Shown piece by piece: positions 2,491 to 64,000 of a DNA stretch of 64,000 nucleotides; the first letter of the stretch is position 1; each line of letters opens with the position of its first letter. The stretch is from Bacteroidales bacterium (lineage in GTDB: Bacteria; Bacteroidota; Bacteroidia; Bacteroidales; F082). The position numbers and the translations under genes were made by a program. The stretch is taken from positions 5,940-69,939 of the forward strand of contig JAZQZR010000015.1 of assembly GCA_045634185.1 (NCBI GenBank), read 5' to 3'. The notes beneath the pieces are model-generated. The model was given only the letters and a program-made list of their open reading frames with translations, did not search any database and had not been told where the DNA came from.

Positions 2491-5400
2491 TTAGTAAACC
2501 AAAATCTTAGCTGTTTCAACTTTTTCACCAGCTTGAACTCTGATGATGTATGTACCTGCTGTGAGGTTTTCAACATTGAAGCTAGCTTTGTGTGAACCTT
2601 GGTCATAGTTGCCTAATACTTGGTTCATCATCATGCGACCTGACAAGTCATAGATTTGATATGAAACTTGTGCTGATTTTTCGATGCTGAAGCTGATTGT
2701 TGCATCGCTAACGATTGGGTTAGGATAGATGCTCATGTCAGATGTGTTAGCAACGATATTTTCTTCAACATTGATTTCGCTATTTTCAACTTTGTAAGTA
2801 TCACATTTGTATAAACCTCTACCGTATGTTGCGATGTAGATAACGCCTTCATTGAAGATGCCAGGATATTCTGTTGTTACAACATCACCAACTTCGTCAA
2901 CGAGGTGGATGTATTTATTGTCGTGGTTAGCTAATATTTGTTGTTTGATATCCATTACAGGGATGTTAGCGATAACTGCATCTTGTGTCCATGTTGACAT
3001 ATTGTCTGATGTGTAGATACCGTTTTCTGTACCGAGGATAACTTTGCCTGTTGTCTTTTCAATGAGACTTGAGTAAACTGGCATTGCTGGTAAGTTACCT
3101 TGTTTTGATGTGAATGATGCACCACCGTTTGTTGAGTAGTATACATAATCTGTATTACCATAGTTACCTAAAGTAACAACAATATTGTCTGAATTTTCTG
3201 GATCGATAGCGATGCTTGTGATAGCGCGGCCTTCGAATTCTGTTGCATCTAATTCAGCTGATGGGATAGCAGATGTTTTGATTGTAGCAACTTTAATAGT
3301 ATCGCTCCAAACATCGTTTTTATCTTTAGCTGTTGAAACTAAGTAGTAGTTTGAACCGAGGCTTAAGTCTTCCCATGTTTTTAATTGATATGTTGTGTAA
3401 AGTTCTTCTGCACTTTGAAGTTCGTCAACGATAGCTTCTAAGCCCATATCTTCGTATTGAGCTTCTGTGTATAAGTTGTAGTTGAAACCACCAACATATT
3501 TATTAGGAGTTACTCTTGTTTTGATGAATGTTCCGCCTAATGCTTCAACTTTGATTGTTGTTTCTGCGATTGAGTCGCCGAGTGAGCTTGTTGATGGGAT
3601 ATCTGTTAAACCTAATGCGAGTTCGCTTGTTACAGCTTCTGATAAACTTTCATATTTGTAGATGTTGCCATCGATAGTACCAACGTAAGCTACGTCGCCG
3701 TCAGCTGAGATTGATAAAGCGTTAGGAATGCCGTTGATTGTACCTATTTTCCACCAATCGACTAATCTGTCGAACATTAAAGCGTCTCTTGTCATATATA
3801 CAGCACCTTCAACTGCTACCATGAATGTAGAAGAGATGATGTCTTGTACTTCGATTGAATCGCCAACTGCTAATGCTTCTGTGAGTTGATATTCGAATGG
3901 ATATTCTGAGTTGTTACTCTTAATCAAAACTGTTGAACCAGCTGGAGCATCGATAGTATCTCTGTTGATATATTTTGCTGTAAGAGGAGATTTTGTATCG
4001 TTATAGTTTTCAAACAATGCGATAGGAGTTCTGAAAGCGTTGCTGTTTGAAATGTATGCTGATGATTCTGTTGCTGAATATGAGAAGTTTTCTTTGTCGT
4101 AGTCAACACCTGCAGTTTGTGTTCTGAAGATTGGAGTACCAATGCTATAACCGCCTGTTACTGTTACGTACATTGCGTTAGGGTTGATTGTTGACATAGC
4201 ACAAGGACCTGCTGCTTTTGTGAAGTCGAATGCTCCATATGTTTCAGCAGCATTTGTTGATGCGTTGTCATTAGGGAATATAGCATTACCAGCTTGTGTT
4301 TCTGCATTGATTGAAGCGTCACCGATAACGTGGATTGTACCATGATCGAGGCTAGCGCCAATACTTGCATTGTTGTCTTTACCTGTGAAAGCAACGCTGA
4401 ACATTCTTGCTACTGATGTGTGGTTTTCAGCATCAAACATATAACGGTTCATGCCTTCGAATTGGTAACCAGTTGCTGCGCTGCATGTGCCTTTGAATAC
4501 ACCGCCTTCGCTACCGACGAAGAATTCGTTAATGTTATTTGGATTGAATGTAATGCTTTGGATACCTGTGTGGATATATGTATAATTGTAGTATGATACA
4601 CCACTTGATTGAGATACCTGGAATGCATTGCCATTTGATAAGCATTCTAATCTGTAGATGCCATCGCCGAATTGGTCATACATAACCCATAAGTTAAGAC
4701 CGCCGATTAAAAGTTTTCTTGGGTCGTTAGGATAAACTGCGATAGCGTTGTCTAATAAACCGCGTGAACCGAAAATGTCATAGATTGTAGTTGCTGTATA
4801 AGCTGTTTGCCATGTTGCACCGTGGTCGCTAGTCATATAGATGTTGCCTGTTCCGTATGTTGATGTGAGGTAAGCAACATATATAATGTTGTGATCTGAT
4901 GGAGCAGCAGCTAACATTTTGTAATTTTCATCTTTTGGCAACATGTTTTCTTCACCTGTTGTAACGATTTCAAAACCGTTAGCTGTTGACATATAAACGT
5001 CTGTACCAACAACAGCGATGATGTCACCGTCTGCACATGTTTCAACACCAAAAGCTTCTCCTTCGATTAATGTTGACCATCCGTTGTCATAACATTTGAC
5101 ACCTTCATTTGTAGCAGCGTAAACTTTGTTGCCATAAACTGCTAAATCATTAACGAATGTTGATGTGCTTTCGATTTGTGTTAATGTTTCACCTTCTAAT
5201 TTGTAGATACCACTACCTACGAAGCTGCTTTCATAGTTAAGGTCTGAGAGACCGTTTTGGTTGTGAGCGCCGCGGCCGTCACCTGTACCAACGTAAATAG
5301 TGCCATCTTCAGTTTGAGCTATGCAGCTAACCATTAAGTTAGAACCGATAGTCTTCCATGTGATACCACCGTTAACTGACTTGAAGACACCGCCACCCAT

Positions 5401-5733
5401 TGTTCCAATGTAAATGGTTTTGTTTGTAGCATCTTGATTGTCATAAACGATACCTCTTGTTAATGAACCATAGTTGTCTGGTCCTAATGATGTCCAGTTT
5501 AATTCACCGTCTCTTGATTGTGAGCCTTTTGTCGCTTCAAGTAACCATGCTGGATCAATTAAGCCAGTCTCTTGGTTGGCGCGAATGCTCTTCATAAATG
5601 ACTGTGCAGTTGGTTGCATAACAGATCTTGGATTGTATTTTCCAGAATCACTGTTTGCATTAACTACAAAACTTGTTTGCGCTAAGATAATGATTGTCAA
5701 AAGCAAACTAATTGGTAAAAATCTTTTTTTCAT
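2491..5733 (-). CDS. T9SS-sorted BNR/Asp-box (sortilin/VPS10-like) repeat protein
   Basis: 1080 aa with a signal peptide. Repeated S-x-D-x-G-x-T-W boxes (SVNGGITW, TSDHGATWQ, STNGGASF, SDNMSTWT). C-terminal YPNP...GTYIIRV sorting domain. Confidence 0.85.
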   Translation of the reverse strand: MKKRFLPISLLLTIIILAQTSFVVNANSDSGKYNPRSVMQPTAQSFMKSIRANQETGLIDPAWLLEATKGSQSRDGELNWTSLGPDNYGSLTRGIVYDNQDATNKTIYIGTMGGGVFKSVNGGITWKTIGSNLMVSCIAQTEDGTIYVGTGDGRGAHNQNGLSDLNYESSFVGSGIYKLEGETLTQIESTSTFVNDLAVYGNKVYAATNEGVKCYDNGWSTLIEGEAFGVETCADGDIIAVVGTDVYMSTANGFEIVTTGEENMLPKDENYKMLAAAPSDHNIIYVAYLTSTYGTGNIYMTSDHGATWQTAYTATTIYDIFGSRGLLDNAIAVYPNDPRKLLIGGLNLWVMYDQFGDGIYRLECLSNGNAFQVSQSSGVSYYNYTYIHTGIQSITFNPNNINEFFVGSEGGVFKGTCSAATGYQFEGMNRYMFDAENHTSVARMFSVAFTGKDNNASIGASLDHGTIHVIGDASINAETQAGNAIFPNDNASTNAAETYGAFDFTKAAGPCAMSTINPNAMYVTVTGGYSIGTPIFRTQTAGVDYDKENFSYSATESSAYISNSNAFRTPIALFENYNDTKSPLTAKYINRDTIDAPAGSTVLIKSNNSEYPFEYQLTEALAVGDSIEVQDIISSTFMVAVEGAVYMTRDALMFDRLVDWWKIGTINGIPNALSISADGDVAYVGTIDGNIYKYESLSEAVTSELALGLTDIPSTSSLGDSIAETTIKVEALGGTFIKTRVTPNKYVGGFNYNLYTEAQYEDMGLEAIVDELQSAEELYTTYQLKTWEDLSLGSNYYLVSTAKDKNDVWSDTIKVATIKTSAIPSAELDATEFEGRAITSIAIDPENSDNIVVTLGNYGNTDYVYYSTNGGASFTSKQGNLPAMPVYSSLIEKTTGKVILGTENGIYTSDNMSTWTQDAVIANIPVMDIKQQILANHDNKYIHLVDEVGDVVTTEYPGIFNEGVIYIATYGRGLYKCDTYKVENSEINVEENIVANTSDMSIYPNPIVSDATISFSIEKSAQVSYQIYDLSGRMMMNQVLGNYDQGSHKASFNVENLTAGTYIIRVQAGEKVETAKILVY

Positions 5734-23431: not shown

Positions 23432-23519
23432 GGGCGTTCCGGCAAAGCCGTCGGGCTTTCCGCTATATCTTTTTCCGCTTCGCTCCAAAAGGATGCCGCT
23501 CCAATCCCTAACGCATTGG
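23432..23519 (+). repeat. GC-rich interspersed element, copy A
   Basis: GGGCGTTCCGGCAAAGCCGTCGGGCTTTCCGCTATATCTTTTTCCGCTTCGCTCCAAAAGGATGCCGCTCCAATCCCTAACGC. It matches three other copies in the window. Confidence 0.9.
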
Positions 23520-29819: not shown

Positions 29820-30933
29820 ATGATAACAATAGAAAACTGTAAAGAGTTAAGTAAGAGGATTGAATCCTTGAGGAGGTATCTTTGACATCGACGGTAAGTT
29901 GATGCAGATTAAAGAATTAGACGAACAGACCAATGCCGACGGTTTCTGGGATGACCCTAAGAATGGCAAGATTATCATGCGCAAGATGCGTGACGTGAAG
30001 AGTTGGGTTACTGCCTACGATGACATCGTAAAAGCTAACGAAGACCTTGGCGTGTTGTTCGATTTCGCTAAAGAAGGCGAAGCAGAAGAAGAGGAAGTCG
30101 ATAAACAATATGAAGAGACAGTACGTCTCGTAGAAGAACTCGAGTTCAGAAATATGCTTCATGAAGAAGCTGACCAGATGAGCTGCGTCTTGAAGATTAA
30201 CTCAGGCGCCGGCGGTACAGAGTCACAAGACTGGGCACAGATGCTCATGCGTATGTATCTCCGTTATGCAGAGTCTCATGGTTATAAGGTAAGAATAAGC
30301 AACTTGCTCGAAGGCGATGAAGCTGGTATCAAGACAGTGACAATGGAAATCGATGGCGATTACGCTTACGGTTATCTCAAAGGCGAAAACGGCGTTCACC
30401 GTCTCGTCCGCGTCTCTCCTTACAACGCACAAGGCAAACGTATGACTTCATTCAGCTCTGTATTCGTCACACCTCTCGTCGACGATTCTATCGAAGTCGT
30501 TATCGACCCTTCAAAAATCTCTTGGGATACATTCCGTAGCGGCGGCGCAGGCGGACAAAACGTTAACAAAGTCGAGTCTGGCGTTCGTCTCCGTTATCAA
30601 TATAAAGACCCTTACACAGGCGAAGAAGAAGAAATCCTCATCGAAAATACAGAGAGCCGCGACCAGCCTAAGAACAGAGAGAATGCTCTCCGTCTCTTGA
30701 AATCTCAACTCTACGATAAAGAACTTCAACATCGTATGGAAGAGAAAAACAAAATCGAGGCCGGCAAGAAAAAAATCGAATGGGGCTCTCAAATCAGAAG
30801 CTACGTCTTCGATGACCGCCGCGTGAAAGACCACAGAACAAACTTCCAGTCAAGTAACGTACAAGGCGTTATGGACGGCAAGATAGACGAATTCATCAAA
30901 GCATATCTGATGGAGTTCGGACAACAAAGTTAA
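29820..30933 (+). CDS. prfB: peptide chain release factor 2, with a programmed +1 frameshift (join 29820..29882, 29884..30933)
   Basis: Frame 0 gives MITIENCKELSKRIESLRRYL and then TGA. The site AGGAGG TAT CTT TGA C is the canonical RF2 recoding signal. The +1 frame continues DIDGKLMQIKEL... and contains the SPF (SPY here) and GGQ motifs. Confidence 0.9.
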
Positions 30934-31060
30934 TTAAAGTTTAGAGTGTAAAGTTTAGAGTGTAGAGTAGTTGAAAGTTTATATAAATTCAAAGACTCTA
31001 CACTTTATTCTATAAACTCTACACCCTACACCCTACACTCTACACCATAAACACTACACT
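30934..31060. repeat. stutter palindrome, TAGAGTGTA / TACACTCTA word family
   Basis: The left arm is repeated AGTTTAGAGTGTA and the right arm is repeated CTCTACAC/CCTACAC. The arms are imperfect reverse complements of each other. Confidence 0.85.
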
Positions 31061-31063
31061 AAA

Positions 31064-32476
31064 ATGATAACATTCTCAATAGCCTTAATAATCCTCGTCT
31101 TAGGATATTTCATCTACGGAAGATATATCAGCCGTATGTTCGGCGTTGACGAGAAACGTGCTACTCCGGCAGTGACAAAAAACGACGGCGTCGATTATAT
31201 CGAGATGCCTACATGGAAAATCTTCATGATACAATTCCTTAACATCGCTGGACTTGGTCCAATCTTCGGAGCTATCATGGGAGCGAAGTTCGGAACGTCG
31301 TCATATCTCTGGATTGTGCTGGGAACTATATTCGCCGGCGCCGTCCACGATTACCTCTCTGGAATGGTGTCGCTGCGTAACGACGGCGCCAGTCTCCCTC
31401 AGATAGTTGGTAAATATCTAGGAAAGAAGACAGAAAGAGTGATGATAATATTCACCTTGTTATTGATGGTGCTTGTCGTAGCTGTCTTTGTATTGCAGCC
31501 GGCGCAGCTCATTGCGGGAATGACACCTACTAATCTCAACGTATATTTCTGGGTGATTGTGATATTCGCTTATTATCTCATCGCTACCATTTTGCCAATA
31601 GACAAAGTCATCGGAAATGTATATCCTCTCTTCGGCGGAGCCTTGATGTTTATGGCGATAGGAATACTCGTCGTTCTTTTTATCAAACAACCGGAACTCC
31701 CAGAGATGTGGAACAGCTTCGGAACGAAATATGAATCGGGACCGATATTCCCTATGATGTTCATATCCATCGCCTGCGGCGCTATCAGCGGATTCCATGC
31801 CACACAGTCGCCTCTCATGGCTCGCTGCCTCAAGAATGAGAGACACGGACGTCCTGTCTTCTACGGCGCTATGGTGGTAGAAGGCATAGTCGCTTTGATA
31901 TGGGCTGCTGCTGCAACGACATTTTTCCAGGAACATGGTAGCAACTTCACCGCAGCGCAGGTGGTTGACTTCTTGTGTAAAGACTGGCTCGGCGCACTCG
32001 GCGGAATACTAGCCATCTTAGGTGTCATCGCTGCTCCTATCACTTCGGGCGATACCGCGATGCGTTCTGCACGTCTCATACTTGCCGATATGCTGCACAT
32101 GGAACAGAAGAGCATCTCTAAACGCTTGTTGCTCTGCGCTCCTTTGTTTGTGGTATCCCTCGGATTGCTTGTCTTCAGCATCGTCAACGCTAACGGATTC
32201 ACAATAATATGGCGTTATTTCTCATGGTGCAACCAGACACTCTCGGTGTTCACTCTATGGGCATTGACGGTATATCTCGTCCTTGAAAAGAAAAATTATT
32301 TCGTGACATTATTGCCGGCACTCTTTATGACTTGTGTCGTCACGACATATATCTGCATCGCGCCAGAAGGATTCCAAATCAATCCTACAATCTCTTATGT
32401 GTTTGGCGGCGTTGTGACATTGGCAGCGATGTTTCTTTTCGCAAGATGGGAAAAAAGCTTAAAGCTTAAAGTTTAG
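31064..32476 (+). CDS. cstA: carbon starvation protein CstA family transporter
   Basis: 470 aa, polytopic, with the HDY and GFH motifs of the CstA family. Confidence 0.85.
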   Translation: MITFSIALIILVLGYFIYGRYISRMFGVDEKRATPAVTKNDGVDYIEMPTWKIFMIQFLNIAGLGPIFGAIMGAKFGTSSYLWIVLGTIFAGAVHDYLSGMVSLRNDGASLPQIVGKYLGKKTERVMIIFTLLLMVLVVAVFVLQPAQLIAGMTPTNLNVYFWVIVIFAYYLIATILPIDKVIGNVYPLFGGALMFMAIGILVVLFIKQPELPEMWNSFGTKYESGPIFPMMFISIACGAISGFHATQSPLMARCLKNERHGRPVFYGAMVVEGIVALIWAAAATTFFQEHGSNFTAAQVVDFLCKDWLGALGGILAILGVIAAPITSGDTAMRSARLILADMLHMEQKSISKRLLLCAPLFVVSLGLLVFSIVNANGFTIIWRYFSWCNQTLSVFTLWALTVYLVLEKKNYFVTLLPALFMTCVVTTYICIAPEGFQINPTISYVFGGVVTLAAMFLFARWEKSLKLKV

Positions 32477-32514
32477 AGTTCAGAGTTCAAGGTTCAGAGT
32501 TCAAAGTTCAAAAA
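32477..32514. repeat. CAGAGTTCA stutter
   Basis: AGTTCAGAGTTCAAGGTTCAGAGTTCAAAGTTCAAAAA starts directly after the cstA stop codon. Confidence 0.9.
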
Positions 32515-32523
32515 TTATGCATT

Positions 32524-34338
32524 ATGAATTATGAATTATGCATTAACGACAATGTTAAGGATTTTATAAAAAAACATCTGAAAGACGATGTCAACAAATT
32601 GGCGTTGTCGAAGTTCCCGGAAGGCATCGACAGGGAATTTGTCATCCGACAGATTCATGCGCGTCAGGTGTTGGACAAGAAGTTGCCATCATGGGCGGGA
32701 AACGATGAACTCATTTTCCCTAAAAAACTGTCGTTGGAACAATGTTCGTCCGAACTCACCGCAAAATATAAAACGACTCTGTTATCCACGAAAGCACACG
32801 AAACCACACGAAAAGAATTTAGTGCCAATTCGTGCGATTTAGTGGATGAAGAAAAATCCACGAATCTTCACGAATCTTCACGAAAAGAATTTAGTGCCAA
32901 TTCGTGCGATTTAGTGGATGAAAAAATATCCACGAAAGCACACGAAACCACACGAAAAGAATTTAGTGGCAATTCGTGCGATTTAGTGGATGAAGAAAAA
33001 TCCACGAAACCACACGAAACTTCACGAAAAGGATTTAGTGCAGATTCGTGCAATTTAGTGGATGAAGATTTAGTGGAAGAAAAGTTATCCACGAATCTTC
33101 ACGAATCTTCACGAAAAGAATTTAGTGCCAATTCGTGCAATTTAGTGGATGAAAAGTTGTCTACGAAATCACACGAAATCACACGAAAAGAATTTAGTGC
33201 CAATTCGTGCAATTTAGCGGATGAAAAAATATCCACGAAACCCCACGAAACTTCACGAAAAGAATTTAGTGCCGATTCGTGCAATTTAGTGGATGAACAT
33301 TTAGTGGATGAAAAGAGAATATTAGTGGACCTCACTGGCGGCATGGGTGTCGACACGGCTTTTCTATCTGATGATTTTGATAAGGCATATTACGTGGAGA
33401 TGCAGGAGGAACTATGCGAGATAGCAAAGCATAATTTTAAGATTCTCAATAAAAATATTGAAGTCGTCAACGATAACGCTGAGCATTTCCTAACAATATG
33501 CGACAAAGCAGATTGCATCTATCTCGACCCCGCTCGTCGCGACGAATACGGTCGTAAGATGGTCTCGCTTCATGATTGCTCGCCTGATACTGCTGAACTA
33601 CAAGACATCTTATTAGAGAAGGCGAAGACTGTCATAGTGAAACTTTCTCCTATGCTCGATATTGATATTGTCAAGAAAGAGTTAAAGAATATTAAGGAAA
33701 TACATGTCGTCGCTGTTAGAAATGAATGTAAAGAACTTGTTGTGGTTCTTGGTCAACAGACAACAGACAACGGACAACAGACTTCTTTCACGGCTCACGG
33801 ACCGAAGTTCATGGCAATAGATTTACGTGAGGGATGGAATTTCTCTTTCACTGAAGACGAAGAACAAAATGCTGAATGGACATTGGCTGATACTGTCGGG
33901 AAATATCTCTATGAACCTGGCGTGGCTTGCATGAAAGCCGGATGCTTCAAGCTTTTGTCGCAAAAATATAATCTGGATAAACTGCATAGAAACAGTCATT
34001 TATATACTTCTGACGAATTGATGCACGATTTTCCAGGAAGAATATTTGAAGTTATAAATGCTGTTCCTTTTGATAAGAAAACGAAGAAAAACATTTGGAC
34101 TTTAAGTTTTGAAGACGCAAAGATACCAAGACACCAAAACGCAAAGAATGACTCTGCGACTCTGAGTCTCTGCGACTCTGCGACCTTAAAAAAAGCAAGC
34201 GTAGCGACTCGTAATTTCCCTCTCTCGGCAGAAGAACTGAAAAAGAACCTGGGATTACAAGACGGCAACAATTTCTATATCTTCGGCACCACGATGAAAG
34301 GCGAGAAGAAGATAGTTGTCCTGACGAAGAAAATATGA
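32524..34338 (+). CDS. class I SAM-dependent methyltransferase with a THUMP-like C-terminal domain, interrupted by repeat insertions
   Basis: 604 aa. Motif I DLTGGMGVD, then YLDPARR, and a C-terminal LYEPGVACMKAGCFK...NSHLYTSD...FPGR region. Residues ~88-265 are tandem repeats. Confidence 0.85.
   Translation: MNYELCINDNVKDFIKKHLKDDVNKLALSKFPEGIDREFVIRQIHARQVLDKKLPSWAGNDELIFPKKLSLEQCSSELTAKYKTTLLSTKAHETTRKEFSANSCDLVDEEKSTNLHESSRKEFSANSCDLVDEKISTKAHETTRKEFSGNSCDLVDEEKSTKPHETSRKGFSADSCNLVDEDLVEEKLSTNLHESSRKEFSANSCNLVDEKLSTKSHEITRKEFSANSCNLADEKISTKPHETSRKEFSADSCNLVDEHLVDEKRILVDLTGGMGVDTAFLSDDFDKAYYVEMQEELCEIAKHNFKILNKNIEVVNDNAEHFLTICDKADCIYLDPARRDEYGRKMVSLHDCSPDTAELQDILLEKAKTVIVKLSPMLDIDIVKKELKNIKEIHVVAVRNECKELVVVLGQQTTDNGQQTSFTAHGPKFMAIDLREGWNFSFTEDEEQNAEWTLADTVGKYLYEPGVACMKAGCFKLLSQKYNLDKLHRNSHLYTSDELMHDFPGRIFEVINAVPFDKKTKKNIWTLSFEDAKIPRHQNAKNDSATLSLCDSATLKKASVATRNFPLSAEELKKNLGLQDGNNFYIFGTTMKGEKKIVVLTKKI
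32785..33318 (+). repeat. Seven tandem units (5 x 72 nt, 2 x 87 nt) inside the methyltransferase CDS
   Basis: Unit starts are 32785, 32857, 32929, 33001, 33088, 33160 and 33232. Consensus: TCCACGAAAnCACACGAAAnCACACGAAAAGAATTTAGTGCCAATTCGTGCnATTTAGTGGATGAA. Confidence 0.95.
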
Positions 34339-34491
34339 ACTTTGAACTCAGACACTGATGGCTGATAGCTGACAGCTTTCAGCTAATCCGGGCGTTCCGG
34401 CGAAGCCGTCGGGCTTTCCGCTATATCTTTGCTCGCTCCGCTTACGCCTCCGCTCGCAAAGGATGCCGCTTCAATCCCTAACGCGGTGGGG
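34337..34491 (+). repeat. Left composite arm: TGAACTC and GACAGCT stutters plus GC-rich element copy B (34390-34491)
   Basis: It aligns by eye, as a reverse complement, with 35467-35602. Confidence 0.9.
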
Positions 34492-34561
34492 TGATACTAA
34501 AAAAATAGATTTTTTTATTCTGAATTTTTGAATTTCTGAGTTTTTGAGTTTCAAAAAAATA

Positions 34562-34569
34562 TATCTTTG
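34562..34569 (+). promoter_or_regulatory. -7 box TATCTTTG for the T9SS cargo gene
   Basis: Perfect TAnnTTTG 35 nt upstream of the ATG at 34604. Confidence 0.6.
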
Positions 34570-34603
34570 TCATGTTTCAATTTATTAACTAAAATTATAC
34601 AAT

Positions 34604-35395
34604 ATGAAAACAAGATTACTATTGGCATTTTGCCTTTTCGCTTTATTCACAACTGTTAAAGCTCAAGAAATTACATTCAAATATGACTTCAACGACAACT
34701 CTTTCAACGGATGGGTCGGTTACGATGCAGACGGCGACGGACATCAATGGGAGCTGCACAACTCGACAGTATCAGGCGGCATGGATGGCACTTACGGCGT
34801 TTATTCTTCATGTTACAACGCCGGAGAATTGACACCGGAAAATTATCTATATACAGCAGATACATATCTGATTACCGAGACGTCAAAATTGCATTTCTAT
34901 CATTGTCAGTCCGACTTGGTATATTTCGCTGAGAAATTCGGTGTGATAGTGTCAGAAGATGGAATCAACTTCTTGATAGTATGGCATACTACATACACCG
35001 AACCACATGCTGACGGCAAATGGGGAGAAGAATTCATCGACCTCAGCGAATTCGCAGGTAAGAATATGTATATCGGATTCCTTCACTACGACTGCAGCGG
35101 AGCTACAGCTAACGGCATCAGAATCGACAATGTCGAGTTGATGTCTGATGGCGTTTCAATAGCAGAGAACAACATTTCTTTTGAAGTGTATCCAAACCCA
35201 GTGGAAAACAGCCTTCTCATCACCAGCGATGTTGAAGTAGAAAATGTAAGCATCATAGCGATGAATGGCGCTGTCATCTACGAAGGAGCATACAACAAGA
35301 ACGGAATAGACGTTTCTGAATTAAATGCTGGAGTTTACTTCGTTAATGTTAAAAAAGGAAACGAAACAATAGTTAGACGTTTCGTTAAGAAATAA
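34604..35395 (+). CDS. T9SS-sorted secreted protein with an N-terminal choice-of-anchor-J/MAM-like domain
   Basis: 263 aa with a signal peptide. C-terminal YPNPVENSLLI...GVYFVNV sorting domain. Confidence 0.8.
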   Translation: MKTRLLLAFCLFALFTTVKAQEITFKYDFNDNSFNGWVGYDADGDGHQWELHNSTVSGGMDGTYGVYSSCYNAGELTPENYLYTADTYLITETSKLHFYHCQSDLVYFAEKFGVIVSEDGINFLIVWHTTYTEPHADGKWGEEFIDLSEFAGKNMYIGFLHYDCSGATANGIRIDNVELMSDGVSIAENNISFEVYPNPVENSLLITSDVEVENVSIIAMNGAVIYEGAYNKNGIDVSELNAGVYFVNVKKGNETIVRRFVKK

Positions 35396-35417
35396 ACATC
35401 TTATTACAAGAGACACC

Positions 35418-35450
35418 AAGACGCGGGGATTACACTCTGCGTCTTTTTTT
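35418..35450 (+). terminator. intrinsic terminator
   Basis: Stem AAGACGC/GCGTCTT followed by T8. Confidence 0.7.
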
Positions 35451-35466
35451 TATTTGCGGGGAGGAT

Positions 35467-35622
35467 GCGTTAGGGATTGGAGCGGCATCCTTTTGAAGCG
35501 GAGCGGAAAAAGATATAGCGGAAAGCCCGACGGCAGAGCCGGAACGCCCAAATTAGCTGTCAGCTGTCAGCTGTCAGCCATCAGTGTCAGAGTTCATAGT
35601 TCAGAATTCAGAGTTCAAAAAA
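35467..35622 (-). repeat. Right composite arm: GC-rich element copy C (35467-35549, inverted) plus AGCTGTC and CAGAGTTCA stutters
   Basis: Its reverse complement matches the left arm block for block. Confidence 0.9.
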
Positions 35623-35660
35623 TAATTCCTCATTCCTAACTCCAAATTCCTAATTTTTCA

Positions 35661-37061: not shown

Positions 37062-38555
37062 ATGAATACACATTATATTTCAGCAGAAACATTAACATTT
37101 GAAAGAGTTAATGAGATTATCACAAAAGGTTACAAACTCGCTTTGTCAGAAGACGCTAAGGCTCGCATTCAAAAATGCCGCGACTACTTAGACAAGAAGA
37201 TGGAGACACAGACAACTCCAATCTATGGTATCACAACAGGTTTCGGTTCATTATGCAACCATAACATCTCTAAAGAAGACCTCAGCACTCTTCAAAAGAA
37301 CCTCGTGATGTCACACGCTTGCGGTACAGGTGAATTCGTTCCAAAAGAAATCATCCGTATCATGATTTTATTGAAAGTTCAAAGCTTGTCATATGGTAAC
37401 TCTGGCGTTCAAGTTGTTACAGTACAACGTCTCATCGACTTCTTCAACAACGATGTTCTTCCAGTAGTTTACAACCAAGGCTCACTCGGCGCATCAGGCG
37501 ACTTGGCACCATTGGCAAACTTGATGTTACCTTTACTCGGTTTAGGTGAAGTACATTATAAAGGAGAAATCGTTCCTGCTGAAGTAGTCATGAAAGAATT
37601 TGGTTGGGAACCTATCACACTCCAATCAAAAGAAGGTTTAGCACTTCTCAACGGTACACAGTTCATGAGTTCATACGGTACTTACGTATTGCTCAAGGCA
37701 TTCCGTCTCTCATATCTCGCCGACCTCATCGGTGCTGTTTCATTAGACGCTTTCGACGGCCGTATCGAGCCATTCTTCGATCAAGTACACCAAATCCGTC
37801 ATCACGAAGGACAAATCAAGACAGCTGAGAGATTCCGTAACTTATTAAAAGGCAGTGAATTGATTGCACGTGAAAAGAAACACGTACAAGATCCTTATTC
37901 ATTCCGCTGCATCCCACAAGTACACGGTGCATCAAAAGACGCTATCAAATATGTAGCTTCTGTCTTTATGAATGAAATCAATGCTGTTACCGACAACCCA
38001 ACAATTTTCCCAGATGAAGATTTAGTTATCTCAGCAGGTAACTTCCACGGTCAGCCACTCGCTATCACATTAGATTTCTTAGCAATAGCAATGGCAGAAC
38101 TCGGCAACATCAGTGAAAGAAGAGTTTACCAACTCATCGGTGGCAAACGTGAGCTCCCTTCATTCTTGGTAGCAGAACCAGGTCTCAACTCAGGTTTCAT
38201 GATTCCTCAATATGCAGCAGCTTCAATCGTAAGCCAAAGCAAACAATTATGCTCACCAGCATCAGTCGACAGCATCGAATCATCACAAGGTCAAGAAGAC
38301 CACGTAAGTATGGGTGCTAATGCAGCAACAAAAGTATTACGCGTAGCTGACAACTTGGAAAGAGTACTCGCTATCGAGTTGTTCAACGCAGCACAAGCAT
38401 TAGACTTCAGAAGACCACTCAAGTCATCAGAAGCAATCGAAGCATTCGTAGCAGAATATCGCAAACACGTTGAATTTGTCAAGACTGACAAAGTTATGTA
38501 CACAGAAATCGCTAAGTCGGTGAACTTCTTACAACAATACGAAGTTAATATTTAA
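37062..38555 (+). CDS. hutH: histidine ammonia-lyase
   Basis: 497 aa with the GSLGASGDLAPL MIO-forming motif. Confidence 0.9.
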   Translation: MNTHYISAETLTFERVNEIITKGYKLALSEDAKARIQKCRDYLDKKMETQTTPIYGITTGFGSLCNHNISKEDLSTLQKNLVMSHACGTGEFVPKEIIRIMILLKVQSLSYGNSGVQVVTVQRLIDFFNNDVLPVVYNQGSLGASGDLAPLANLMLPLLGLGEVHYKGEIVPAEVVMKEFGWEPITLQSKEGLALLNGTQFMSSYGTYVLLKAFRLSYLADLIGAVSLDAFDGRIEPFFDQVHQIRHHEGQIKTAERFRNLLKGSELIAREKKHVQDPYSFRCIPQVHGASKDAIKYVASVFMNEINAVTDNPTIFPDEDLVISAGNFHGQPLAITLDFLAIAMAELGNISERRVYQLIGGKRELPSFLVAEPGLNSGFMIPQYAAASIVSQSKQLCSPASVDSIESSQGQEDHVSMGANAATKVLRVADNLERVLAIELFNAAQALDFRRPLKSSEAIEAFVAEYRKHVEFVKTDKVMYTEIAKSVNFLQQYEVNI

Positions 38556-38655
38556 TAGTGTAAAGTTGAGAGAGTAGAGTTTAGAGTAGTTAGATGTGTA
38601 TACTATCAACTGCTTTAAACTCTACACTTTACACTCTACACTTTAAACTAATAAT
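38556..38655. repeat. stutter palindrome, TAGAGT/ACTCTA word family
   Basis: The left arm is GTGTAAAGTTGAGAGAGTAGAGTTTAGAGTAG and the right arm is CTTTAAACTCTACACTTTACACTCTACACTTTAAAC. Confidence 0.85.
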
Positions 38656-45130: not shown

Positions 45131-45277
45131 ACAAATTCTTTTATTCAAACGTACACCTTTAATTAAAAAAAAACTCAAAATCTCAGAATCTCATAAACTC
45201 ATATTAAGAACTTTCGGACCTTTATGTCTTTATGCCTTTTTTTGATTTTTTTGAATTCTGTTATTTTAAAAAAGTCT

Positions 45278-54268: not shown

Positions 54269-56299
54269 TTATTCAATCATGAGTTTCTTTGTGATATTGC
54301 CTTCTGCACTTTCGATGTTGATGAAGTAAACACCGCTCTTATATCCTGAAACATTGATTTCTACGTCGTTGGCATTGACTTCAATTTCTTCGATTATCAT
54401 TCCTAAGCAGTTGTAAATTTTAACAACTGATAACTGACCGCTGACCGCCGACAGCTTGACAAAGTCATTCGCTGGATTAGGATATATGCTGAACTCATTG
54501 ACTTCGTTTTCATCGATGTCGATAACAAAGTCGATAAAATCAATGATGCCTATTGATGACTTGTCGCCATATTTTGCAACAACTTCCACAGTCTTCATTC
54601 CTGATTCATCGAAGATGATGTCGTGCGACAAGGCGGTTGTGTTTTCTTCAACCAATATGTTGTTGATGTAGATGTCGTATCCTGAAGGATTACCATTCTG
54701 AGGTGCTTCCCATGAGGCCTTGAGTTTGTTGACGCCATCATATTCAAATTGAAGGTTTTCGATAGGATAGACGTGCTCGCTATATTCGTAAGCGAAGCGG
54801 CTGTTGAAGACTTTTTTGCTTTCCTTGTCTTGAATCCATAACGCTACTTCTAGGTCGTTGATATCTTCGACGTCGGTCTGCGACATATCGTAAGAGAATT
54901 CGAAACGTTGGTATTCGCCAGCATTGATGTTAAGGTCGTTGCCTTCTGCGTTGTCGAACATCTTCATCATAATATGGTGGAATTCTGTCTCGCCGTTGCT
55001 GCCGGTATTTTCTGTCGTTGTCTTTTCATTGACAGAGATGAATGCGCTTAAATTTTGCAAGTCGATATATGACATGAAGTCGGCAATGATATTGATTGTG
55101 TTGCCGTCTGTTGTGAATGAGCCTCTGATATCTGCGATAGAAGGTGCGTTGATAGCAGCGTCGATGTCTTCTTGTGTTACTATGCCGCTGATGGTTGTGA
55201 ATCCGTCAACGAAAATGGTAGGGACGGCGCTGACGTTATAGAATGACTTTTTGGTATCGCCATCGTTGTTGAAATAAGGGTCGCCTATTGCAGGCCAGTT
55301 CATGGCGTATTTGACGTAAGTGTATTTGTTTGGGTTGGCTTCTGTCAGAGCATGCATTGTGGCGTTCACCTCGACGCAAGGTCCGCAGGTCGAGCTGGAG
55401 AAATGCTCTATCATAGGAATCTTTGGTGCGAGACCTGCTGCAGCGACTATCTCTTTGTTCAAGATGTTGTTGGTGCTGTTCTCGTCGGCGTTGCCGTTTG
55501 CTGTGTTAATCTCGATGCTGAGTTCGTAGTTGCCCAATGGCAGCGGCTGTTTTGTCTCGAAGGAGAAGCTTTCGCTTTCCATAGGTCCCAAATCGGTTGT
55601 GAATGATTCTGTGACAGTCTCACCGTTGATGGTATATGTAGCTTCAAAAGATTCAATGACGACTTCGCCCATATTCTGTATTGTGAAACTTATTTCGTTC
55701 TCGCCGTAAAGCACGTAATCGTGGTTGTTGATATTGGTGAGGCTGATGTCAACTTGGTTTTGACTGTTGATGTAAAAATCGTCGAAGAACCAGAAGTTGA
55801 TGTTGTATGAGTTGCCTTCGAAGAAGATGCAAATTTTGACATTGTCTTTTCCGAGGTCTGGACTTTCGAAGATTTCTAACACTTCGTAAGTGCCGTCTGT
55901 GTCGTAATGTTTGCTCCATGCGGTGTTCCATGTGTTGCCGTTGTCGCTGGATGTTGCGACACCGATGGTTCCGCCTTCGGTAGAGCCATCATAGATATCG
56001 ACATTATGTTTCAATGACAATGTAGCAGAAGTGATGCCAGAGAAATTGACGGAAGAGTAAATCGCTCTGGTGATGCCTTCGTATGGTGGTGTCCATCCGA
56101 ACTGCAGTTCGTTTGGCGTTCCGCCAGCTATGGCGCTTTTGGCTATCATCCAGTTGGATGCACCGTTGTCAATTAAAGACCAGCCTGCTGGCAACTCGTT
56201 GGAATCGAATGTCTCCTGAAAAACAATGCCGGAACCTTGACCGAATAAATTAAAAGCTGTGAATAATGCAATAAATGTAAAAAGTAAGGATTTTCTCAT
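54269..56299 (-). CDS. T9SS-sorted surface protein with a thioredoxin-like/Omp28-related central domain
   Basis: 676 aa with a signal peptide, a choice-of-anchor-J-like N-terminus, a HFSSSTCGPCV motif and a C-terminal YPNPANDFV...GVYFINI sorting domain. Confidence 0.85.
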   Translation of the reverse strand: MRKSLLFTFIALFTAFNLFGQGSGIVFQETFDSNELPAGWSLIDNGASNWMIAKSAIAGGTPNELQFGWTPPYEGITRAIYSSVNFSGITSATLSLKHNVDIYDGSTEGGTIGVATSSDNGNTWNTAWSKHYDTDGTYEVLEIFESPDLGKDNVKICIFFEGNSYNINFWFFDDFYINSQNQVDISLTNINNHDYVLYGENEISFTIQNMGEVVIESFEATYTINGETVTESFTTDLGPMESESFSFETKQPLPLGNYELSIEINTANGNADENSTNNILNKEIVAAAGLAPKIPMIEHFSSSTCGPCVEVNATMHALTEANPNKYTYVKYAMNWPAIGDPYFNNDGDTKKSFYNVSAVPTIFVDGFTTISGIVTQEDIDAAINAPSIADIRGSFTTDGNTINIIADFMSYIDLQNLSAFISVNEKTTTENTGSNGETEFHHIMMKMFDNAEGNDLNINAGEYQRFEFSYDMSQTDVEDINDLEVALWIQDKESKKVFNSRFAYEYSEHVYPIENLQFEYDGVNKLKASWEAPQNGNPSGYDIYINNILVEENTTALSHDIIFDESGMKTVEVVAKYGDKSSIGIIDFIDFVIDIDENEVNEFSIYPNPANDFVKLSAVSGQLSVVKIYNCLGMIIEEIEVNANDVEINVSGYKSGVYFINIESAEGNITKKLMIE

Positions 56300-61632: not shown

Positions 61633-63204
61633 ATGATTTTACTAACATTAAGTCACACAGCAGCATACATTCTCTTAGGAGTGGCTGCTCTCGTAGTAGG
61701 CGGTGGTATCGGCGTGTTATTATCTTCAACAGTGATGCGCAACGCCCTCACAAAAAAAAGCAATGAACTTTTAGAAGAAGCTAAAGAAAAAGCAGAAGTA
61801 ATCAAAAAAGACAAAATCCTTCAGGCTAAAGAGAAATTCTTACAGATGAAAGCCGAATACGAGAAGGAAACTAATGAACGCAAACGCGAAATCCAAAAAC
61901 TCGAATCACGCGTTCAACAACAACAACAACAAGCTAACCAACGCGAAGAAGAACTCCGCAAGAAGGCTAACGAAGTGAAAAGCCAACAACAAAGCGTTAG
62001 CGCTCAACAAGAAAATCTCCACAAACGTCAAGCAGAATTGGATAAAATCCAAGACGAACAAAAGAAACTCCTCGAGTCAATCTCTGGCCTCTCAGCATTA
62101 GAAGCTAAAGAACAACTTAAGGAAATGATGAAAGATGAGGCTGTCTCTGAAGCTATGGTCATCTCAAGAGAAATCGTTGAAGAAGCTAAGATGTCGGCTA
62201 ACCAAGAAGCTAAGAAAATCGTTCTTGAGACAATACAACGTACAGCAGCAGAACACGCTATCGAAAATACAGTATCAGTATTTAATATTGAAAACGACGA
62301 AATAAAAGGTCGTATCATCGGACGTGAAGGTAGAAACATCCGTACTTTGGAATCTCTTACAGGCGTTGAAATCATTATCGACGACAGCCCTGACGCTATC
62401 TTGCTCTCTGGCTTCGACCCAATCCGCCGCGAAATAGCTCGCCTTTCTTTACAAAAACTCGTTACAGACGGTCGTATCCACCCAGCTCGTATCGAAGAAG
62501 TCGTTAAGAAAGTTGAGAAACAAGTTGAACAAGAAATCATCGAAACAGGTAAACGTACAGTCATCGACCTCGGCATCCATAACCTCAGCCCTGAACTCAT
62601 CAGAATGATAGGTCGTATGAAATATCGTTCATCATACGGTCAAAACTTATTGCAACACTCTATTGAAGTAGCTAAACTCAGTTCTTCAATGGCTGCTGAA
62701 CTCGGTCTTAATCCTAAGACAGCTAAACGTGCCGGTCTCCTCCACGATATCGGTAAAGTGGCTGAAAACGACGAAGAATTGCCACACGCAATCTTAGGTA
62801 TGAAGACAGCTGAGAAATATAAAGAAAAAGCTGACGTATGCAACGCTATCGGTGCTCACCACGACGAAATTGAAATGGAAACACTTATCGCTCCTATCGT
62901 TCAAGTGTGTGACGCTATCTCAGGCGCTCGTCCAGGCGCTCGCCGTGAAGTCGTTGAGGCTTACATCCAACGTCTTAACAAACTCGAAGAAATGGCAATG
63001 GCATTCCCTGGCGTCGTCAAGACTTACGCTATCCAAGCAGGCCGCGAATTGCGCGTCATCGTTGCTGCTGATAAAGTAAGCGATACAGAAGCCGACCGCA
63101 TCTCATTCGACCTCTCTAAACAAATCCAGACAGAGATGACTTATCCAGGTCAAATTAAAATCACTGTCATCAGAGAAACAAGAGCTGTTAGCTTCGCGAA
63201 ATAA
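61633..63204 (+). CDS. rny: ribonuclease Y
   Basis: 523 aa with an N-terminal TM helix, a coiled coil, a KH domain ([12 protein letters not shown]) and an HD domain (LLHDIGK). Confidence 0.95.
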
Positions 63205-63207
63205 AAA

Positions 63208-63241
63208 GACTACAAGTCTACAAGACAACAAGACTACAAGT
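63208..63241 (+). repeat. 34-nt ACTACAAG stutter block, left copy of an inverted pair
   Basis: GACTACAAGTCTACAAGACAACAAGACTACAAGT. The reverse complement of 63474-63507 matches at 32 of 34 positions. Confidence 0.95.
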
Positions 63242-63288
63242 AGAGACGTATCAAAATTCTTTGAATTTTGCTGCGTCTCTCTTTTTTT
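63242..63288 (+). terminator. intrinsic terminator after rny
   Basis: Outer stem AGAGACG/CGTCTCT, inner stem AAAATTC/GAATTTT, then a T-run. Confidence 0.75.
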
Positions 63289-63473
63289 GTCTATTATACC
63301 TTTTTTTAAATCTCAGAAACTCAAAACCTCAGAATCTCAGAAGAACTTTGAACTCTAAACCTTTTTAGTAATGAAGTGATGTGAAAAATTTCTCAACCCT
63401 GAAATCCTCCATCCACGAAATCGCACGAAACTACACGAAATTTTTTTTCTGTGAAAACCACATCACCCCAACA

Positions 63474-63507
63474 ACTTGTAGTCATGTAGTCTTGTAGACT
63501 TGTAGTC
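63474..63507 (-). repeat. 34-nt CTTGTAGT stutter block, right copy of the inverted pair
   Basis: ACTTGTAGTCATGTAGTCTTGTAGACTTGTAGTC. Confidence 0.95.
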
Positions 63508-63517
63508 TTCTTTCTTT

Positions 63518-63610
63518 GGGCGTTCCGTCTCCGCTTCGCTCCGCCGTCGGGCTTTCCGCTATATCTTTTTCCGCTGCGCTCCAAAAGGATGCCGCTCCAA
63601 TCCCTAACGC
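63518..63610 (+). repeat. GC-rich interspersed element, copy D
   Basis: GGGCGTTCCG-TCTCCGCTTCGCTCC-GCCGTCGGGCTTTCCGCTATATCTTTTTCCGCTGCGCTCCAAAAGGATGCCGCTCCAATCCCTAACGC. Confidence 0.9.
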
Positions 63611-63655
63611 ACTGGAGAATTCTAGAACTTTAGAATTCTAGAACCTCAGAAAATT

Positions 63656-64000
63656 CTAAAGTTCACTCTCTGCGTCTCTGCGACTTTGCGACTCTGTGTC
63701 TTTCTTAATCTCAACAAAAAACGTTGTTCCTTTCCCGACTTCGCTTTCGAAAGTGATGTTTCCTCCTAATGTCTCCAAAATGTCGTAAACGATGGAAAGT
63801 CCTACTCCCATTCCGCTGGATTTAGTGGTGAAGTTAGGCATGAAGATTTTCTTCTTCTCCTCCTCGCCTATTCCGCATCCGTTGTCACTAATCTCAATTC
63901 TATATCTGCCTCCATTATCCGTTATCCTAAATTCAATGTGGCCGTCTTCTTTTTTGCCGATGGCTTGTATTGCGTTCTTCAGAATGTTTCCAAAGACGAT
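63656..64000 (-). CDS. sensor histidine kinase, C-terminal HATPase_c part (N-terminus outside the window)
   Basis: The frame is open from 64000. N-box NILKNAIQA, G1 DNGCGI, G2 GMGVGLSIV. The tail KKDTESQSRRDAESEL is encoded by a stutter repeat. Confidence 0.85.
   Translation of the reverse strand: MVFGNILKNAIQAIGKKEDGHIEFRITDNGGRYRIEISDNGCGIGEEEKKKIFMPNFTTKSSGMGVGLSIVYDILETLGGNITFESEVGKGTTFFVEIKKDTESQSRRDAESEL

Follow-up and report, generated by a model that had tools for sequence, protein, structure and literature searches.

Why does a single gene for a secreted protein lie between two long inverted repeats, each of them composed of smaller repeats? This question is raised by a locus in a stretch of 64,000 nt from a Bacteroidales genome (GenBank assembly GCA_045634185.1, contig JAZQZR010000015.1), which was analysed at its full length and is called the window hereafter. 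Between a methyltransferase gene and hisS, the window carries one gene for a cargo protein of the type IX secretion system (T9SS), with one arm of an inverted repeat on either side. An earlier note on this DNA took the arms for a REPIN-like doublet or a pair of miniature inverted-repeat transposable elements (MITEs) which could invert or mobilise the enclosed cassette. Here we report that each arm is a copy of the known dispersed Flavo-1 repeat joined to common stutter DNA. The explanation that we favour, and hold with fair confidence, is that two ordinary Flavo-1 repeats and generic stutter came to lie around a resident gene and were later lengthened by copying from arm to arm; they would be passive substrates of recombination, neither a switch nor a mobile cassette. 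The locus comprises the following features (positions in the window).

34337-34389, forward strand: left-arm outer flank, with a reversed AGTTCA-type stutter (34337-34351), GACA, four GCTGAnn heptamers (34355-34384) and CTAATCC; read in the sequence, with a period-7 array called by Tandem Repeats Finder (TRF) at 34355-34377
34390-34484, forward strand: left Flavo-1-type core, 'long-apex', with helices P1 (34392-34396/34480-34484), P2 (34398-34401/34405-34408) and P3 (34411-34432/34456-34478)
34562-34569, forward strand: Bacteroidota-type -7 box of the cargo gene, TATCTTTG, read in the sequence and fitting the consensus TAnnTTTG
34604-35395, forward strand: T9SS cargo gene, 263 aa, from the list of open reading frames (ORFs), with Cleaved_Adhesin and Por_Secre_tail domains (Pfam)
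35418-35450, forward strand: intrinsic terminator of the cargo gene, stem 35418-35445 (11 bp, 6 GC pairs) followed by a T-run (terminator scan)
35467-35549, reverse strand: right Flavo-1-type core, 'short-apex', like the copies at 23432 and 63518 (Rfam, alignment)
35550-35622, forward strand: right-arm outer flank, with AATT, nnTCAGC heptamers (35555-35584), TGTC and an AGAGTTC-type stutter (35587-35617) (TRF)

Composition of the arms

A repeat search recovers the arms as two paired stretches, 34331-34443 with 35496-35608 (113 nt, 87% complementary) and 34448-34484 with 35467-35503 (37 nt, 89% complementary). Aligned globally in inverted orientation, the whole arms (34331-34484 and 35467-35608) give 126 matches, 16 mismatches and one apical indel of 12 nt, the longest exact block being the 26 nt of GCCGTCGGGCTTTCCGCTATATCTTT. 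The alignment score of 169 compares with 1.8 +/- 2.2 in mononucleotide shuffles and lies about 75 standard deviations above them. In a scan of the whole 64-kb window the pair is by far the longest inverted repeat at a separation of up to 4 kb; the arms are 982-1052 nt apart, with the 792-nt cargo gene within. The block-by-block correspondence of the left arm with the reverse complement of the right arm, described in the earlier note, was borne out by alignment as well as by direct reading: the blocks are GAACT(T/A)TGAACTC.GACACTGATGGCT, the GCTGAnn heptamers, and AAT(CC/TT)GGGCGTTCCGGC followed by a GC-rich element.

The GC-rich element is a member of the Flavo-1 RNA motif family, RF01705 (Weinberg et al. 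2010, PMC2864571), whose function is not known (PMC2864571, PMC9029176). The left-arm block matches the Rfam model at 34403-34502 on the minus strand with 43.6 bits (gathering score 42), and the right-arm block at 35448-35536 on the plus strand with 40.3 bits, slightly below the gathering score. Even though it falls below the threshold, the right core can be aligned throughout and is identical at 83 of 83 positions to the right core of locus L238, which together with L239 is the closest relative recovered (95% of nucleotides identical over the stretch from the cargo gene to hutH). Two further cores bring the number in the window to four, and the threshold of 42 bits is passed by the left arm and by the copy at 63541-63621.

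23432-23514, forward strand: third core copy, between M20 peptidase and nucleoside phosphorylase genes (pattern search, alignment)
63518-63610, forward strand: fourth core copy, between rny and a convergent gene; RF01705 match at 63541-63621, minus strand, 42.1 bits (pattern search, alignment)

The outer flank of each arm consists of two kinds of imperfect 7-nt tandem unit, AGAGTTC-type and GCTGAnn-type, and thus belongs to the heptanucleotide simple-sequence arrays, tandem imperfect 7-nt units near gene ends. Arrays of period 7 are called by TRF at 34355-34377, 35555-35590 and 35587-35617, and in many other spacers. Indeed, 7-8-nt stutter arrays of many units occupy almost every intergenic spacer of the window (1475, 22162, 23580, 30935-31059, 32454-32545, 38560-38649, 40379, 45171-45239, 48699, 63206-63701), and inside a spacer they often stand as short inverted pairs that form hairpins, as at 38545-38654, 30933-31065 and 63203-63512. 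More specific to the two arms is their 53-nt outer flank, which no other of the four core copies shares; GACACTGATGGCTGA likewise occurs in both arms and nowhere else in the window.

Concerning the stutter of the right arm, the earlier note had seen a direct repeat, CAGAGTTCA, at 32477-32514, and had concluded that the methyltransferase and cargo genes are jointly bracketed. The repeat is real, with 87% identity over 38 nt (32480-32517 and 35587-35624), and it is not specific: the AGTTCAnAGTTCA stutter is found at four separate sites of the window, one of which lies in the spacer between CstA and the methyltransferase gene. As 7-8-nt stutters occur in most spacers in addition to these four sites, the joint bracketing carries little weight.

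32468-32512, forward strand: AGTTCA-type stutter array in the CstA-methyltransferase spacer (repeat search)

A public metagenome collection (JGI contigs) was scanned with a 23-mer from the arm heptamers for composite arms or the orthologous locus. Among the matches listed, more than 120 unrelated contigs with 35-71% GC (L084-L203) contain the 23-mer, all of them in GCTGAnn arrays, and in none does a Flavo-1 core lie next to it. Because so many unrelated contigs carry GCTGAnn arrays without cores, the heptamer block of the arms is generic. An inverted (nnTCAGC)n partner lies upstream of the GCTGAnn array in 43 of the 120 matches listed, at a median gap of 38 nt, and downstream in one; the GCTGAnn pair of the window has the opposite polarity, 1.17 kb apart. 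No description of such a fixed-polarity, hairpin-like GCTGAnn element was found in a literature search by heptamer sequence, which gave only unrelated primers.

Comparable heptanucleotide simple-sequence arrays are the short tandemly repeated repetitive (STRR) sequences of cyanobacteria. Heptanucleotide long simple sequence repeats (LSSRs; Mrazek et al. 2007) and intergenic TAACTGA repeats, some of them in Bacteroidota too, are described in MacGregor 2015 (PMC4679880). The blocks of the arms are like the TAACTGA arrays in that imperfect tandem units of 7-8 nt (GCTGAnn, AGAGTTC) stand in spacers by stop or start codons, and the arm unit nnGCTGA is one base away from TAACTGA in its core. Unlike LSSRs and TAACTGA arrays, many different units coexist here in almost every spacer, and some have expanded in frame inside a gene.

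Two possible roles of the arms as RNA were set aside. The first, that they are stand-alone small RNA (sRNA) genes with their own promoter, finds no TAnnTTTG box 5' of either arm on the strand modelled by Rfam, as read in the sequence. The second, an RNA duplex formed between the arms on a read-through transcript, was dropped because transcription would meet the cargo terminator before it reached the right arm.

The cargo gene and its locus in relatives

The cargo gene is a complete transcription unit of its own. Its -7 box, its 263-aa reading frame and its terminator all lie inside the arms, at the positions first given for them; Pfam detects Cleaved_Adhesin and Por_Secre_tail in the protein with E-values of 2.4e-18 and 4.2e-13, respectively. 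Moreover, the same -7 box is found 5' of the cargo gene in relatives, and the terminator is conserved in L238 and L242. Three genes of the window carry Por_Secre_tail, the T9SS C-terminal sorting domain (2491-5733 on the reverse strand, 34604-35395 on the forward strand and 54269-56299 on the reverse strand), and Flavo-1 cores flank only the small one at 34604-35395.

For a comparison of loci, about 30 contigs provided the surroundings of cargo and HisS homologues; the recovered loci are given L-numbers. The DNA belongs to an uncultured Bacteroidales from gut or rumen samples, and the nearest GTDB representatives, with HisS 95-97% identical, are metagenome-assembled genomes. Cargo homologues are 59-88% identical and stand beside the methyltransferase gene in every relative with a recoverable context. 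The genes follow one another as RF - CstA - methyltransferase - cargo - (variable) - hisS - hutH in all loci recovered with both flanks, namely L001/L002, L005, L006, L225-L228, L229-L230, L235-L236, L238-L239 and most of L242-L251. Homology to the window restarts at 35654 in all close relatives. The variable part between the cargo gene and hisS holds the following genes.

Window, L238/L239, L242-L251: none
L001/L002: DUF3667 gene and a 212-aa gene
L006, L225-L228: a 464-aa gene
L229-L230: CNNM gene
L005: four genes
L235-L237: M20 peptidase gene

Flavo-1 cores are distributed over the same loci as follows, where '+' means that the core reads from GGGCG to CCCTAACGC on the gene strand.

Window, L238/L239: + in the methyltransferase-cargo spacer, - 3' of the cargo gene
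L001, L005, L225-L228, L242-L251: - in the methyltransferase-cargo spacer (opposite to the left arm of the window), none 3' of the cargo gene
L006: none in the methyltransferase-cargo spacer, none 3' of the cargo gene
L229/L230: none in the methyltransferase-cargo spacer, + 3' of the cargo gene (opposite to the right arm of the window)

Because the gene order is kept with no arm, one arm or both arms, the cargo gene is evidently a resident of the methyltransferase-hisS interval, vertically inherited and not delivered by the arms. This bears directly on the proposal that the arms mobilise the cassette, in which the cargo gene would travel as a composite transposon between a pair of MITEs. One gene enclosed by inverted copies of a multi-copy repeat is what such a transposon would look like, and the place of the cargo gene relative to the DUF3667/212-aa pair does vary: it stands right of the 212-aa gene in L235/L237 and L003, and left of the pair in L001. 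Against it, the cargo gene stays in the methyltransferase-hisS interval, in relatives without arms and in those with one arm as well, and its divergence is similar to that of the neighbouring genes. No empty site with a single arm was found in the relatives; reading the sequence revealed no target-site duplication outside the arms and no direct duplication around any of the four cores. We give a mobile cassette practically no chance.

The same evidence separates the arms from the element classes to which they had been compared. In REPINs, two repetitive extragenic palindromes (REPs) lie a few tens of nucleotides apart and fold as one hairpin; REPs also form bacterial interspersed mosaic elements (BIMEs), and the family is associated with REP-associated tyrosine transposases (RAYTs). 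The Flavo-1 cores resemble REP/BIME elements in being short, GC-rich, structured, multi-copy, intergenic near gene ends, present in both orientations and possibly substrates of recombination. To that extent the reading as a dispersed REP- or MITE-like repeat stands. A REPIN doublet they are not: 982-1052 nt and a whole gene separate the arms, and the genes of the window include no RAYT (Y1 transposase). Nor is the doublet the unit that recurs, the cores at 23432 and 63518 and those in the single-core loci of relatives being singletons (64 kb of the genome and the loci of relatives examined). With respect to MITEs, the cores are small (83-170 nt), non-coding, multi-copy (four per 64 kb) and polymorphic, being present or absent at orthologous spacers, and their sole terminal complementarity is the 5-bp P1 helix (GCGTT/AACGC), without target-site duplication.

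Concerning inversion, the cargo gene points the same way as hisS in the window and 28 loci, the methyltransferase gene serving as the reference in loci recovered without hisS. Only one orientation is found in both double-armed lineages and also in 10 places with one identical hisS allele. The exception is L232-L234 (three samples): compared with L229, the methyltransferase and CNNM genes are colinear and the cargo gene alone is inverted. The breakpoints in L232 show no cores and no flanking inverted repeat beyond 10-nt matches at chance level. A single-gene inversion has thus evidently happened at least once in the clade, without a tie to Flavo-1 arms, and any role of such repeats in it would be conjectural.

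Could the cassette nevertheless be a programmed or frequently inverting one, in which the arms recombine and turn promoter, gene and terminator round as one unit within populations? The arms are about 150 nt long with 87-89% identity and bracket exactly one transcription unit, past exchange between them is likely, and the L232-L234 inversion affects just this gene. Moreover, many cargo-bearing contigs are only 1-2.5 kb long; short contigs, however, are expected beside any dispersed repeat, and the inverted lineage has neither cores nor a flanking inverted repeat. An inversion would carry the enclosed promoter along with the gene and so would not turn expression on or off; the advantage that normally favours an inverton is thus missing. 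In 48 ORFs scanned with Pfam, which include almost all of the larger ones in the window, only housekeeping functions and no recombinase, integrase or transposase were detected. The contexts recovered from relatives gave no evidence of ongoing switching; exact-protein look-ups (cargo, HisS and two small neighbours) for contigs of the same strain returned no record. With the enclosed promoter, no recombinase in the window and a single orientation of the cargo gene outside L232-L234, also in both double-armed lineages, we regard an invertible cassette as very improbable.

The earlier note had itself excluded a classic Bacteroides invertible promoter, correctly, since the whole transcription unit lies inside the arms. 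Bacteroidales invertons have repeats of about 10-30 bp around a promoter only, use a site-specific recombinase and occur in both orientations in populations. The present locus is like them, and like the invertible gene segments that recombinases drive, in that inverted repeats surround a DNA segment tied to a surface or secreted protein; it differs in its enclosed transcription unit, in arms that are generic dispersed repeats, in the lack of a nearby recombinase and in the single orientation of arm-bearing lineages. Regarding any special geometry of the arms, an arm orientation random with respect to neighbouring genes had been named beforehand as an outcome that would speak against it, and the near-random presence and orientation of cores at both spacers comes close to this.

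Altogether, the methyltransferase-hisS interval appears to be a rearrangement hot spot, where repeats and accessory genes come and go. Further rearrangements were noted there. In L245 (5070-5760) an IS3-family element with HTH_Tnp_1 and rve ORFs sits inside the core upstream of the cargo gene, and upstream synteny is replaced by unrelated genes. The methyltransferase-cargo spacer of L001 (4410-4620) and L242 (5110-5620) contains 2-5 tandem units of about 100 nt which end in a terminator-like hairpin (GTCGCACGGTCGTGCGAC, then Ts). Another MITE-like element, about 200 nt long and with ends of the type ACTTCTATAAA...TTTATAGAAGT, is present in L235 (1545-1740 and 2875-3070), L232 (5848-5943) and L236 (4000-4200); the two copies in L235 are direct repeats on either side of a 296-aa gene.

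Evidence for exchange between the arms

If the arms neither move nor switch the gene, how did they become so similar? Comparison with L238 suggests an answer. Both cores are shared with this relative, the left one at 94 of 94 aligned positions, with a 77-nt apex indel in addition, and the right one as given above. The left flanks are a different matter. In L238 the left flank consists of (GAACTCT)n followed by TAGAATAGTCTTGTGGTCTTCCTTT, without GCTGA heptamers. The left flank of the window shares 87% identity with the right flank of the same locus and 91% with that of L238; with its positional orthologue, the left flank of L238, it shares 71% and is essentially unrelated. Because L242 and its group, which have no right core, already carry an nnTCAGC heptamer array 3' of the cargo terminator, the heptamers are old on the right side and predate the insertion of the right core. 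The left core of the window has the locus-specific 'long apex' also seen in L001, L005, L225, L238 and L242, and in its right core the apex is of the 'short' form found in the dispersed copies. The left arm is thus a mosaic of a resident core and a flank of right-arm type, because a long-apex core is joined there to such a flank. Most likely, then, the left flank was copied from the right arm, and the two arms have probably recombined with each other; we infer both the direction and the mechanism of this copying from the pattern of similarities.

Our preferred explanation can be put as a sequence of steps. Two Flavo-1 copies, each joined to stutter arrays, would have come to lie, by chance in opposite orientation, in the spacers around a resident cargo gene, with both cores in place before the split from the closest sequenced relative. 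The similarity of the arms would have grown from about 85-95 nt to about 150 nt when the left arm received a copy of the right flank (AGTTCA stutter, GACA and GCTGA heptamers), most likely by gene conversion anchored outside in the shared GAACTCT/AGAGTTC stutter and inside in the conserved 5' part of the core. As passive substrates of homologous recombination, the arms could flip or reshuffle the cassette over evolutionary time.

Several points weigh against this explanation. The direction of copying is read from one close relative, and the heptamer flank may instead have been lost in L238. Compared with the long-apex core that seems orthologous to it in L001, L005, L225 and L242, the left core has the reverse orientation, for which our explanation has no account. 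The longest identical block is just 26 nt, and 26 nt is near the lower limit for RecA-dependent exchange in E. coli. The longest inverted repeat of the window and a double-core arrangement in two lineages may reflect selection for the geometry. Finally, the passive role of the Flavo-1 arms is an assumption.

Alternatively, a composite unit of stutter, heptamers and core may have inserted twice, as two members of one subfamily, independently and in opposite orientation, without any exchange between the arms. A stutter array adjoins GGGCG on the 5' side in every chromosomal core, and the core at 63518 combines a 5' flank like the left flank of L238 with a 3' flank like that of the L001/L242 core, so flanks may travel with cores. 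The mosaic left arm, with its long-apex core and right-arm-type flank, speaks against this, as does the restriction of GACACTGATGGCTGA to the two arms, no other composite copy being found in any locus. We consider two independent insertions unlikely.

The Flavo-1 module in chromosomes and phages

A different question is whether the cores themselves do something for the cargo gene. Two scans of IMG/VR added 21 further core loci. For a structure alignment, 20 distinct copies from chromosomes and phage contigs were used, the variable apex being replaced by a linker and the structure being read from the sequences. In this core alignment 94% of paired cells are complementary, compared with 84% in shuffles and 43-49% when the partners are slid by 1-3 columns. 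Nine core pairs have changed on both sides, and 0 of 500 shuffles reached the observed values. The closing helix P1 (GCGTT/AACGC) has one pair that is AU in 9 copies and UA in 9, and the next pair occurs as four pair types; the upper part of P3 covaries and its lower part is invariant in 20 of 20 copies. The small P2 hairpin has a cUUCGg loop in two copies, and insertions at the P3 apex range from 1 to 226 nt. Folding energies of four cores on both strands were no better than those of shuffled sequences (Z -0.2 to +1.7), and because folding energy gives no signal, it is from covariation that support for the structure comes. The 20 copies thus show the long hairpin with symmetric internal loops and the covariation that characterise Flavo-1.

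In phages the core has a preferred place. In 13 distinct dsDNA-phage loci (IMG/VR contigs L204-L207, L210, L212, L214, L215, L218, L219, L221, L223 and L224) it lies 0-120 nt 3' of the stop codon of a TerL-like gene of 530-570 aa. Among seven proteins tested next to phage cores, three match the PHROG terminase large subunit (phrog_2), and a weak portal match was obtained in addition; Pfam gave no matches for the phage genes adjoining the core. The strand reading from GGGCG to CCCTAACGC is always the sense strand in these 13 loci, and Rfam calls the phage copies Flavo-1 at 43-52 bits, antisense to the genes. Phage cores also occur elsewhere than next to terL, namely in the microvirus contig L213 and as a second copy in the phage contig L208.

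These findings raise the possibility that Flavo-1 modules are functional cis elements (as RNA or DNA structure, an insulator, a 3'-end or stability element, or a protein-binding site) which, placed on both sides, isolate expression of the cargo gene from the methyltransferase gene and hisS, the inverted symmetry being a by-product. In addition to the conserved structure with covariation and an invariant lower stem and to the position directly 3' of the TerL-like gene in the 13 phage loci, the closeness of cores to stop codons supports this. The gap measures 27 nt for the M20 gene and 52 nt for the methyltransferase gene; in L229, where the core is followed by a T-run, its distance from the cargo gene is 9 nt. 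However, core orientation relative to neighbouring chromosomal genes is mixed, as it is in Flavobacterium psychrophilum, where Flavo-1 matches in the transcriptome are sense or antisense to transcribed regions and many lie outside them (PMC9723704). Likewise, neither strand folds better than its shuffles, a canonical terminator already serves the cargo gene ahead of the right core, and close relatives manage without one or both cores. We therefore regard such a cis function of the arms as rather improbable and keep to two ordinary repeats around a resident gene.

How do these copies relate to the Rfam family? Both arms share with it the helix GGGAUUG.AGCGG...AGCGGAAAGCCC, and the family consists of intergenic multi-copy elements in Bacteroidota, with an orientation relative to transcripts that is reported as indifferent (PMC9723704). 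They differ from it in that the copies here and in phage contigs add the helices P1 and P2, which lie outside the 76-nt Rfam model, as well as apex insertions of 1-226 nt. Furthermore, the gene-sense strand in phages is opposite to the strand modelled by Rfam, and an RNA role is putative.

A wider idea is that the Flavo-1 module is no sRNA gene and instead a structure-dependent mobile or copy-prone element, with a three-helix junction, an invariant recognition helix and an insertion-tolerant apex, common to Bacteroidales chromosomes and to their phages, where it stands right after terL. At T9SS cargo hot spots, inverted pairs like the present arms would then cause gene conversion, the inversion of single genes and gene turnover by way of an enzyme acting in trans. 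We offer this as a speculation which is doubtful at present.

The feature is ordinary by itself; it shows how two abundant intergenic repeats make a long inverted repeat around a surface-protein gene. It is also a worked example of the fast turnover of genes, repeats and an insertion sequence in the methyltransferase-hisS interval of an uncultured gut and rumen Bacteroidales clade. Flavo-1 is among the most abundant Rfam 'sRNA' families, and the two extra covarying helices, the variable apex and the fixed post-terminase place in phage contigs could guide experiments that distinguish an RNA from a protein-binding DNA site or a mobile element.

Stutter units have also expanded in the neighbouring methyltransferase gene. 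Its ORF (32524-34338) contains 6.9 in-frame copies of a 72-nt unit at 32784-33297, composed of CACGAAA-type stutters and internal palindromes. These repeats extend the THUMP-like/PG_1098 methyltransferase to 604 aa, compared with 421-455 aa in relatives, and the closest relative, L238, has a single copy of the unit. Other stutters in the same ORF are CAACAGA, four times at 33754, and GACTCTGC, four times at 34150.

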